A DNA stretch of 64,000 bases, taken from NCBI RefSeq assembly GCF_045037415.1, contig NZ_CP173438.1, one strand, 5' to 3'. Positions 22,959 through 25,900 of this stretch are shown piece after piece. The position numbers are program-made. Within the stretch, counting starts at the first letter, position 1. Each line of letters opens with the position of its first letter. Source of the stretch: Escherichia coli (GTDB lineage Bacteria; Pseudomonadota; Gammaproteobacteria; Enterobacterales; Enterobacteriaceae).

Positions 22959-25900
22959 TAAGTTCGCTAAAAAACAGAACGGGGCCAAAAGGTCCCGTTT
23001 TTTTCGCCTTTATTTAGGAAAAGTGTCCAGAGGGGGCGAGGGTTATCGGGGAGTATAATTTCGCCATTCAGCAAGAATGGAAAGAATAATGCAAAGCGGA
23101 AAATGGATTTTGACCTCGCTGGTAATGACTTTTTTTGGCATCCCCATACTGGCGCAATTTTTGGCAGCGGTTGTTGCCATGCTGGGGGCCGGGCTTGCCG
23201 CTATTCTTGAGGTTTGCAATTTACTCTTTACGCCAACAATTTATCTTCTACTCAACGTCTTTATGCTGACGCTGGGGGCGATAATCATATTTTTCTCTGG
23301 TCGCGTGTGGGCTGGTGATAGCGCACCAGAAAAAAGAGAAATAGCCGCCTGGCGACAATGCTTTTTTCTCTTACCCGCGCTATTAACCCTGGTTGGCTGG
23401 ATAATCGCGCTACATCTGGCAGATTATCAATTTCGCCAGATGGGATCGGGCTGGTTGGCAAACCTTATGCTTTCCTGGCAGGGTGTTTTGTTACTCTCAT
23501 TAATCAGTGGCGACTACTGGTGGATAGTCATTATACCCGTTGGCGCGCATATCAGTTTTTCGCTGGGATACGGCTGGCCGACAAGGCATCCTTTAACCGG
23601 CACGTCCGGGCTACGTTGCCGTAACTTACTCCTGTTTCTACTTCTCTTACTTGGTTTTGTCGCTGGGTATCAGGCTTATTTATATAAACAGCTTAATCCC
23701 GGTGTCGGTGTGCGTGAAAATATTGATACCTGGGCCTGGCGACCCGATAAACTTAATAATCAACTGACGCCACTGCGTGGTAAACCACAAATTCAATTTA
23801 CGCAAAACTGGCCGCGACTCGATGGCGCTACGGCGGCGTACCCCATTTATGCCTCTGCATTTTATGCATTAAGTGTAATACCAGAGGATTTTCACGTTTG
23901 GGATTATCTGGATAACTCTCGTACGCAAGAAGCATATAACAAAATCGTTAACGGTGATGCCGATATTATTTTCGTGGCGCAACCTTCCGATGGGCAAAAA
24001 AAACGCGCTGAGAAATCGGGCGTCACTTTGCTGTACACGCCATTTGCCCGTGAAGCGTTTGTTTTCATCGTCAATGCGGATAATCCGGTTAATTCCCTGA
24101 CTGAACAACAGGTGCGTGACATTTTCAGTGGCGCAATTACCAACTGGCGCGCGGTTGGCGGTGACGATCAGGAGATCCAGACCTGGCAACGCCCGGAAGA
24201 CTCTGGCAGCCAGACGGTGATGCTATCGCAGGTCATGAAAAATGTCCGCATGATCTCGCCGCAGGAAACGGAAGTGGCAAGCGTGATGGAGGGAATGATT
24301 AACGTTGTTGCCGAATACCGTAATACAAAAAACGCAATAGGCTACACCTTCCGCTATTACGCAACACAAATGAATGCCGATAAAAATATAAAACTGCTAG
24401 CGATTAACGGTATTGCACCGACTGCGGAAAATATTCGCAACGACAAATATCCCTATATCGTCGATGCCTTAATGGTAACGCGGGAAAATACGACGTCAGA
24501 GACACAAAAATTGGTGGAGTGGTTTTTAACGCCGCAGGGGCAGAGTTTGGTGGAAGATGTGGGCTATGTGCCGATGGATAAAACGTTGCATTAAGCAGGA
24601 TTACAATATGGATATCATTAATATTTTCCTGAACGCGGCGAATGCCCTTTTTATCTATCAGCCGTTTATGCACGATCAGCGGGCGAGGGGGTAATTATGC
24701 ACCCCACTCCTGCCATGCAGGCATTAATTGAGCAGATATATCATATTTTTCGTCGTTATCCGGCGCCGCAGCAATTTGTGGTTTGTTGTGAATATTGTCT
24801 GAGTCAACAGGAACAAAAAGCATTACGGAATACATCGTTGCGAGCGATTCCTTATTCCTTAATCAATGCCTGGAATAGTAGTCCAGGACCTGATCCGCAA
24901 AACAGCGATGAGGTTCGTTATTTTCTGCCTTGTTTACTGGAGTTTGTTGCGCAGGGGCAATTTGACAATATTCACGAAGTATTTTCTCTACGGCGTATCA
25001 ACCTTGCCAGTAAAGAAAACTGGCGTGAGGATGAACGGGAAATATTGCAGCAATTTGCTTGCCAGTATATGACTGATTGGGTATCCGGGGATGAGGCTGT
25101 CGAATTACAGTACAAGCTGGAAATGTTTTTCCGTGCCGATATCGCTCTTTCGCCATTGCTTGATGCCATTATTTCAGTTCCCGGATTTTGGTCGGCAGCG
25201 TCTCTTGCCTGTTTATTGAATACGTATCGTGACGGTTATATCAGAGATAATCAGGACGATATCGATAAAGCCATTACCACTCAAACTAATACTTGGGCTA
25301 GTAATAATCAATCCATCCTGAAAGAACGCGCGCGGCAGGCGATTGAGAATCCGCTTAAGCAGTCCGAACAGGGCACACAGTATCAGGCCTGGGAAGACGA
25401 GTGGATGATTGATGAGTGTTTATGTGCCATGTATGACGCATCATCCGAATCATCAGGACATTAAAGATGAATAAAATCAGACTTTATATTTACCCTGTAA
25501 TTTTCGGTTTTGTTATCGTACCATTATTGGTATGGCCGACGGTTATTGCCTTAGCCGTACTTATATTCACGTTAACTTTTCTGGCTGAAATAATATTCTC
25601 CTTTCCGCTCCTGGTTGTGCGTATTTCTCTTCAGGAATTACAACTTGAGTTATTGGTTGAATATGCACTTTTTTTCAGTGTAATGGGTGGCATCGGTTGG
25701 CAATTCTCCCGCAGAACGCCTCCTGAATTAAAAAACAGGCTACATTGCTGGCTGGTTTTTTCTCCGGTCTATTTCTGGTTAATTCTCTCGAATTTCATTC
25801 TTTATATTTCTCCAGAGAAATCAGCGTTGCTGGAAAATATCCGAAATTTCTTTCTGACATTTGTCTGGCTTCCCCTGAATTTTTCCCCTTTTTGGCCGCA

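Follow-up and report, generated by a model that had tools for sequence, protein, structure and literature searches.

The closest described relatives of YzgL, the product of an intact yzgL gene in a stretch of 64,000 nucleotides of an Escherichia coli chromosome (NCBI RefSeq assembly GCF_045037415.1, contig NZ_CP173438.1; here referred to as the window), are the phosphate-binding proteins PstS of the PstSCAB systems (families TIGR02136 and TIGR00975; structures 4gd5, 4q8r and 1twy, and PstS of E. coli). YzgL has the class II Venus-flytrap fold of PstS and, like it, a GxT loop, a Ser/Thr at a helix N-terminus and the R-x3-S-G-S/T clamp. Unlike PstS, YzgL starts with a polytopic membrane region of about 200 residues and has no signal peptide or lipobox, the latter being found in short paralogues only. 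Furthermore, yzgL is neither encoded together with pstCAB-phoU nor preceded by a Pho box, and its product carries an Ala in place of the specificity Asp/Ser and scores under the family cut-offs.

Binding proteins acting as co-receptors are known from the PstS-CtpL chemoreceptor, LuxP-LuxQ and TorT-TorS (reviewed in PMC8050422). As proposed here for YzgL, these systems use a PBP_like_2 or related domain for sensing and not for transport alone. However, their binding proteins are soluble and dock on the periplasmic domain of a receptor, whereas YzgL is itself membrane-embedded. A further point in common is that a homologue of YzgL in Paenibacillus is co-transcribed with a multi-pass histidine kinase.

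ATP-binding cassette (ABC) importers of Gram-positive bacteria and archaea use lipoprotein binding proteins or permease fusions of the OpuA/GlnPQ type. Their binding domains resemble that of YzgL in that a hydrophobic segment at the N-terminus keeps them on the external side of the cytoplasmic membrane. In these systems the anchor is a lipid, a single helix or an ABC permease domain and the ATPase genes are adjacent, whereas YzgL has no match to a permease family and no linked ATPase gene. In Bacillus subtilis, the six-helix sporulation kinase KinB and its extracytoplasmic accessory protein KapB, a small lipoprotein, are encoded in one operon. A KinB-like kinase gene followed by a yzgL-family gene with a 4-nt overlap is found in Paenibacillus, but KapB is unrelated to binding proteins and the parallel is one of gene order in a single genus. 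Finally, sensor proteins such as histidine kinases, chemoreceptors and cyclases have a cytoplasmic output domain, which YzgL has not.

We favour, with a probability of roughly 40%, the reading that YzgL is a self-contained receptor, tethered to the membrane, whose ligand is a fully ionised oxyanion group resembling phosphate, and that it is not a subunit of an ABC transporter. The features of the gene and of its product are as follows:

23077–24594, plus strand: yzgL coding sequence, 505 amino acids (alternative starts at 23086, as in RefSeq, and at 23089)
23077–23694, plus strand: N-terminal membrane domain, residues 1–206
23695–23811, plus strand: conserved linker, residues 207–245, between the last membrane helix and the binding domain, with E214 and L230 conserved in family alignments
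23812–24576, plus strand: PstS-like Venus-flytrap domain, residues 246–500, predicted to be periplasmic
23824–23835, plus strand: G250-A-T-A253, counterpart of the loop that binds phosphate first in PstS and reads STS in PBP-1 of Clostridium perfringens (profile alignment to 4q8r/4gd5)
23977–23979, plus strand: Ala301, at the phosphate-specificity position held by Ser59 in PBP-1 and by Asp in other PstS proteins (family alignments; PMC5381212)
24190–24213, plus strand: R372-P-E-D-S376-G377-S378-Q379, equivalent to the R125...S129-G130-T131 phosphate clamp and invariant in the family

The binding domain and its cleft

A preliminary description of the window had placed a 505-amino-acid open reading frame (ORF) at 23077–24594 in the interval between glgP and glpD, and had read it as a polytopic membrane N-terminus joined to a PstS-like C-terminal domain. 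The ORF is present as described and both halves of this architecture were recovered. In the hidden Markov model search residues 249–485 matched Pfam PBP_like_2 (PF12849) over model positions 15–265 of 267 with an E-value of 2.4e-29. All significant sequence matches of the binding domain in the PDB were phosphate-binding proteins with identities of 20–22%. The fold likewise matched solved PstS proteins, since the best 35 Foldseek matches were all phosphate-binding proteins, with best E-values of 7e-15 to 2e-14 and target template modelling scores of 0.78–0.81. The scores of YzgL were below the cut-offs of the curated PstS families (118.8 versus 206.6 bits for TIGR02136 and 15.1 versus 205 for TIGR00975), and six homologues from other phyla stayed under the curated PstS cut-off as well.

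In PBP-1 of C. perfringens phosphate is bound by Ser11, Thr12, Ser13, Ser41, Ser59, Arg125, Ser129, Gly130 and Thr131; other PstS proteins carry Ala and a hydrophobic residue at positions 11 and 13, and Ser59 takes the place of their key Asp (PMC5381212). Profile alignment to 4q8r/4gd5 assigned these nine positions to A251, T252, A253, T283, A301, R372, S376, G377 and S378 of YzgL, respectively. T252, T283, R372, S376, G377 and S378 are conserved and the positions of A251 and A253 are compatible; thus, eight of nine contacts fit. The first phosphate-binding loop of E. coli PstS reads GATF. In the family alignments examined, the eight compatible positions show little or no variation from phylum to phylum, and the position of Ala301 is occupied by Ala, Val or Gly, never by Asp, Ser or Thr. 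Judged from these alignments, the site for clamping an oxyanion appears to be kept and canonical orthophosphate recognition appears to be lost, because only the selectivity Asp/Ser, which forms a hydrogen bond to a phosphate oxygen, has been replaced among the contacts. Since this key residue is missing, phosphate itself is no more than a candidate ligand of YzgL.

A periplasmic location of the binding domain would follow from the distribution of positive charges in 24 homologues described below and from paralogues of about 330 amino acids, in which the same binding domain stands behind lipoprotein signal peptides (...LISGC, ...LMSGC) and the membrane domain is absent.

The membrane domain

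Six hydrophobic peaks are present in residues 8–203. An AlphaFold2 model of full-length YzgL, built with 34 homologues, reached a mean predicted local distance difference test score (pLDDT) of 87 and a predicted template modelling score (pTM) of 0.78. In agreement with the polytopic N-terminus described before, it shows a helix bundle at residues 2–206, with helices predicted at 2–46, 53–79, 84–114, 124–144, about 149–169 and about 176–206, followed by the alpha/beta domain. The number of Lys and Arg residues per sequence, counted in the 24 homologues, was 2.2 for the N-terminus, 3.5 for the loop 76–93 and 4.3 for the loop 167–182, with almost none in the other loops. By the positive-inside rule we infer a topology with the N-terminus inside, five crossings and the C-terminus outside. 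Helix 124–144 would therefore lie at the periplasmic face or re-enter the membrane, that is, it is probably interfacial or re-entrant.

Conserved motifs of the membrane domain are P23, W108, SGxxW, IPVG..F.LG and Q199, and only four positions are invariant. No Pfam family matched the domain. A model of the membrane domain only (pLDDT 88.6) retrieved generic helix bundles from the PDB, and its matches in AFDB50 were confined to its own family. The profile of the domain, searched against 1.84 billion representative proteins, gave just 146 matches. These were mainly full-length proteins of about 480–540 amino acids and short ORFs that in many cases are probably fragments, but also included some complete stand-alone membrane-domain proteins of about 180–215 amino acids. 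The conserved motifs together with the existence of the domain as a stand-alone protein argue that it may be more than an anchor.

Selection on yzgL

The ratio of non-synonymous to synonymous substitution rates (dN/dS) between the window and the commonest E. coli allele was 0.16 for yzgL at a synonymous divergence (dS) of 0.33, with values of 0.21 for the membrane domain and 0.12 for the binding domain. Between the same alleles, the flanking genes glgP and glpD showed a dN/dS of 0.02–0.03 and a dS of 0.14–0.23. The comparison indicates purifying selection on yzgL, weaker than on these core genes, within an unusually diverged segment. Together with hundreds of homologues, the dN/dS between the two alleles speaks for a real gene and against a chance ORF.

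The wider family and its genomic neighbours

For a census of the family, one genome per species was scanned with two family-specific motifs. The subfamily of the binding domain was found in at least 578 species of Proteobacteria, Bacillota, Actinomycetota, Planctomycetota, Bacteroidota, Spirochaetes and others. Genomic neighbours were clustered for 78 loci from different species, based on crude ORF calls. Most of the 78 motif-bearing ORFs contained 3–6 hydrophobic segments ahead of the binding domain. Members of about 480–540 amino acids have a membrane domain of the YzgL type, as exemplified by a Desulfosporosinus member (hhalign probability 96.7%).

As stated in the preliminary description, no ABC permease or ATPase gene adjoins yzgL in the window. 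The same was true for eight annotated homologous loci, among them those of Klebsiella, Salmonella, Budviciaceae and Leclercia. No directly adjacent transporter recurred in the 78 clustered loci, and pst genes stood beside the family gene in none of them. An ABC ATPase-like gene was present in 7 of 78 loci, 2–4 genes away and at scattered offsets.

The only recurrent close neighbours were regulators, which we count in favour of a receptor. An XRE-type helix-turn-helix protein of about 150 amino acids was encoded directly upstream in 7 of 78 loci (Psychrobacillus, Sporosarcina, Jeotgalibacillus and a metagenome-assembled genome of Clostridia). Additionally, a KinB-like multi-pass histidine kinase gene stood beside the family gene in three Paenibacillus loci. 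The 4-nt overlap was seen in two of these; in the third, only a 116-amino-acid kinase-like ORF overlaps the family gene according to the crude calls.

Proposed function and alternative explanations

In the reading favoured here, the N-terminus of YzgL would be cytoplasmic and about five helices would span the inner membrane, placing the linker and the two-lobed PstS-like domain in the periplasm. Arginine together with Ser/Thr and backbone donors would clamp a tetrahedral oxyanion in the cleft. Its ligand may be a fully ionised group that resembles phosphate, occurring by itself or within a larger molecule, because the cleft keeps the donors of the clamp and is devoid of the Asp/Ser that reads the proton of phosphate. 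Closure upon ligand binding could then be relayed by the family-specific membrane domain to a partner that is unlinked or specific to a lineage. YzgL would not be the delivery subunit of an ABC importer.

Several observations weigh against this reading. YzgL contains no cytoplasmic output or transmitter domain, given that PBP_like_2 is its sole Pfam domain and that the cytoplasmic loops comprise only about 16 residues. No family-wide conserved partner recurs in the eight annotated or the 78 clustered loci, and 31 of the latter are without a close same-strand neighbour. The adjacency of regulators concerns about 10 of 78 loci in few lineages and could be a lineage-specific coincidence. In Bacillales, forms of about 385 amino acids have a shorter N-terminus with no detectable match to the profile of the YzgL membrane domain; since these N-termini could not be related to it, the role of the membrane domain may not be universal. 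Moreover, yzgL is dispensable, as K-12 has lost it and some strains carry it in interrupted form, and no functional study of the gene was found in the literature. The earlier proposal of a sensor or a tethered binding protein still names what is most likely, although YzgL has no output domain and the family no conserved partner.

YzgL could instead be an extra, membrane-tethered PstS that catches orthophosphate for an unlinked PstCAB, comparable to the anchored binding proteins of Gram-positive bacteria. In both sequence and fold, only phosphate-binding proteins of Pst systems are found among its nearest relatives, and the phosphate ligands are for the most part conserved. Moreover, in Leclercia and Brachymonas the homologue has a gene for the polyphosphate kinase PPK2 beside it or close by. 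We consider this doubtful in view of the scores far under the curated cut-offs, the Ala at the Asp/Ser specificity position, the missing Pho box and the 78 loci, in none of which pst genes adjoin. Five helices with conserved motifs also far exceed what an anchor needs. PPK2 occurred in none of the 78 loci and was dropped as a general link. According to another explanation, which we regard as unlikely, both domains act on a membrane-embedded phospho-molecule such as the head group of a phospholipid, lipid A or polyprenyl-phosphate. The cleft would hold a phosphomonoester whose ester substituent fits where Asp56 is replaced by Ala, and the membrane domain would be a carrier, a flippase accessory or an enzyme. 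By removing the proton acceptor and leaving donors only, the Ala would suit a fully ionised phosphoryl group. The presence of conserved motifs in a segment that probably re-enters the membrane close to its periplasmic side, the confident overall arrangement of the full-length model (pTM 0.78) and the stand-alone paralogue of the membrane domain are consistent with such a role. However, the explanation is arrived at purely by inference, the membrane domain is unlike known transporter or enzyme folds and has just four invariant positions, lipid or cell-envelope genes do not recur near the 78 loci, and the lipoprotein paralogues do without a membrane domain.

It appears very unlikely that YzgL belongs to a variable island as a periplasmic protein of immunity or defence, directed against a toxin delivered by competitors. 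It is true that the gap between glgP and glpD is a variable hotspot with presence/absence polymorphism and that the genes 3' of yzgL, YbbD-type proteins among them, are swapped between strains. YbbD-type proteins occur in Rhs orphan regions. Furthermore, lipoprotein paralogues stand in tandem arrays in E. coli TA054 and in Salmonella, there with an Ntox34 fragment and a HEAT-repeat protein. But the pocket is nearly invariant across phyla, unlike the evolution of toxin-matched immunity proteins, and the at least 578 species show unrelated, mostly housekeeping contexts. No toxin gene adjoins in the window locus, PADLOC gave no match for YzgL or for the downstream products orf2 and orf3, and a dN/dS of 0.16 bears no sign of diversifying selection. 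After the PADLOC, PHROGs and dN/dS analyses the idea was left unsupported. We attach the least probability, and hardly any, to YzgL being a leftover that has no current function in E. coli and is heading to the pseudogene state of K-12. The losses or truncations in 38% of the complete genomes, the interruption by IS1 in one, the split gene in O157:H7-type strains and the weak-looking promoter would agree with decay. Against it stand the intact ORF, full-length in comparison to homologues of other genera, the low dN/dS (0.12 in the binding domain) sustained over a dS of 0.33, and the orthologues that Klebsiella and Salmonella have retained at this locus.

A wider generalization can be put forward, although we hold it to be a doubtful one. 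YzgL-type proteins may be widespread, unrecognised two-module receptors of the cell envelope, in which a cleft derived from PstS, now without the residue that reads the phosphate proton, takes a phosphomonoester or another fully ionised oxyanion and a new five-helix module, also found alone as orf3, relays occupancy to membrane kinases or regulators or handles a membrane phospho-lipid.

The intact yzgL is a real, common and already annotated gene, and most tests of membership speak against its annotation as a PstS transporter subunit. The name "PstS family" is probably an over-annotation that has been copied into thousands of genomes. What the locus offers is a well-understood anion-binding fold joined to a membrane domain that has no family or structural relative. 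Its presence in most E. coli but not in K-12 may explain the lack of study. Identification of ligand and partner would add an envelope function that is based on a binding protein without an ABC transporter, and would give a function to a family with members in hundreds of species. We regard the finding as a sound but moderate lead and not as a surprise.

Position, start and boundaries of yzgL

The gene order in the window is glgC-glgA-glgP, the yzgL segment, then glpD, which is on the opposite strand, and glpE-glpG-glpR. In line with the preliminary description yzgL lies between glgP (20514–22961) and glpD (26126–27646, minus strand). It is, however, not the only gene in this gap, which it shares with two further genes at 24697–25464 and 25467–26072. 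The segment 22900–26200 is 100% identical to several RefSeq genomes. Three non-coding features were noted in it:

22981–23004, plus strand: intrinsic terminator of glgP, a GGGGCC-AAAA-GGTCCC hairpin with a T run behind it (read from the sequence; absent from the consensus-scan list)
23054–23059, plus strand: possible -10 element with the sequence TATAAT, 18 nt ahead of the first ATG, without a good -35 element and a putative part of a promoter
26094–26118, minus strand: terminator-like hairpin of glpD with 11 pairs, at the right edge of the variable segment

The terminator of glgP sets yzgL apart from the glycogen operon, leaving a spacer of about 70 nt after the hairpin. Upstream of yzgL the promoter scan returned nothing above chance, and no Pho box was matched within 3 mismatches; the single match in the window falls within orf2 and does not exceed chance.

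The RefSeq counterpart WP_122984432.1, named a "PstS family" protein by NCBI, starts at 23086, where the codon (23086–23088) is ATA. ATG codons are located 9 nt upstream (23077) and 3 nt downstream (23089). As the ATG at 23089 is preceded by GGAAAG and seems an equally good start, the N-terminus is to be taken as uncertain by four residues.

Distribution and evolution in E. coli and Enterobacteria

The combination of a membrane-embedded binding protein with no adjacent transporter genes had been called unusual. This was overstated: counting yzgL as present at a coverage of at least 80%, we found it in 3347 of 5426 complete E. coli genomes (62%), and, apart from the wide spread of the subfamily, it is annotated routinely in RefSeq. 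The region is known as a variable spot and was named "hotspot A" in a 2026 paper.

The yzgL of K-12 had been described as a short pseudogene remnant, which is borne out by the annotation. In K-12-type strains the pseudogene is annotated with 222 bp; sequence similarity to the window extends as far as 23310, about codon 78, and starts again at the stop codon of glpD. The window sequence 23311–26125, comprising most of the yzgL-orf2-orf3 segment, is replaced there by about 265 bp of palindromic DNA resembling repetitive extragenic palindromic (REP) elements (locus extract L002 1913–2177). In NZ_CP107155.1, a strain otherwise identical, yzgL is interrupted by IS1. In O157:H7-type genomes the gene is split, the segment 22900–26200 matching in three pieces with two "PstS family" coding sequences. 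The IS1 insertion, the O157:H7-type change and the K-12 deletion point to independent changes at the locus.

Alleles of yzgL in E. coli differ by up to about 10% at the DNA level. Synonymous divergence was 0.33 for yzgL and 0.38 for orf2, compared to 0.14 for glgP and 0.23 for glpD. The high dS suggests old allelic lineages or an exchange with other Escherichia species.

Klebsiella and Salmonella carry orthologues of yzgL in the same gap between glgP and glpD. The genes 3' of yzgL vary among strains and genera. Where the window has orf2 and orf3, other E. coli have an extra gene of 236 amino acids or a "YbbD family" gene, and Klebsiella and Salmonella encode YbbD_head or DUF4279 proteins. Several of these 3' neighbours (locus extracts L003 3210–3920, L010 9864–10571, L004 9838–10542 and L007 9564–10109) share just the first 45 or so residues with a Salmonella protein of 181 amino acids (NCBIfam PRK09781, Pfam YbbD_head) and then diverge completely. 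Such a mosaic pattern looks like cassette replacement by recombination.

In E. coli TA054 the gap between glgP and glpD (L010 4987–11064) holds a YzgL of 520 amino acids followed by two short paralogues of 325 and 326 amino acids. The group is bordered by two secreted proteins of about 141 amino acids consisting of 'YRDxNGNxKGT..DSxG' repeats. In Salmonella, a strain-variable array of small unannotated ORFs on one strand is situated between a Peptidase_U32 gene, which is a few genes upstream, and a DUF4034 gene (L011/L012, about 17 kb; L015/L016 from about 10000). Some strains carry in this array two lipoprotein YzgL-type paralogues, the Ntox34 fragment and the HEAT-repeat protein. A second Salmonella paralogue is located between ruvC and ruvA (L017 8001–9497). 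In Brachymonas (L018 8001–9503) the last 11 nt of ruvB are shared with the homologue; thus, ruv adjacency is found in distant taxa.

The downstream genes orf2 and orf3

Two ORFs follow yzgL in the window:

24697–25464, plus strand: orf2, 255 amino acids, acidic and cytoplasmic-looking
25467–26072, plus strand: orf3, 201 amino acids, homologous to the membrane domain of YzgL, stand-alone and with no binding domain

No match to orf2 was found in Pfam, NCBIfam, PADLOC, PHROGs or the PDB. Its 53 relatives in the databases are limited to Escherichia, Shigella and close relatives, all species-named ones belonging to these two genera. The start of orf3 lies 3 nt past the stop of orf2, and this short distance suggests translational coupling of the two genes.

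A plain BLASTP comparison of YzgL and orf3 returned nothing, and the homology is visible only by profile comparison. Aligned to the profile of the membrane domain by hhalign, orf3 gave a probability of 95.5% and an E-value of 1.6e-8 over 162 columns. The motifs VPxL, GxxW and P-[IV]-x-A-Q-x-x-F-x-L-G-Y align between both proteins. Additionally, the same profile retrieved the orf3 homologue P0207 from the whole library with an E-value of 8.4e-7. The unannotated membrane module hence occurs twice at the locus, fused to the binding domain in yzgL and alone in orf3.

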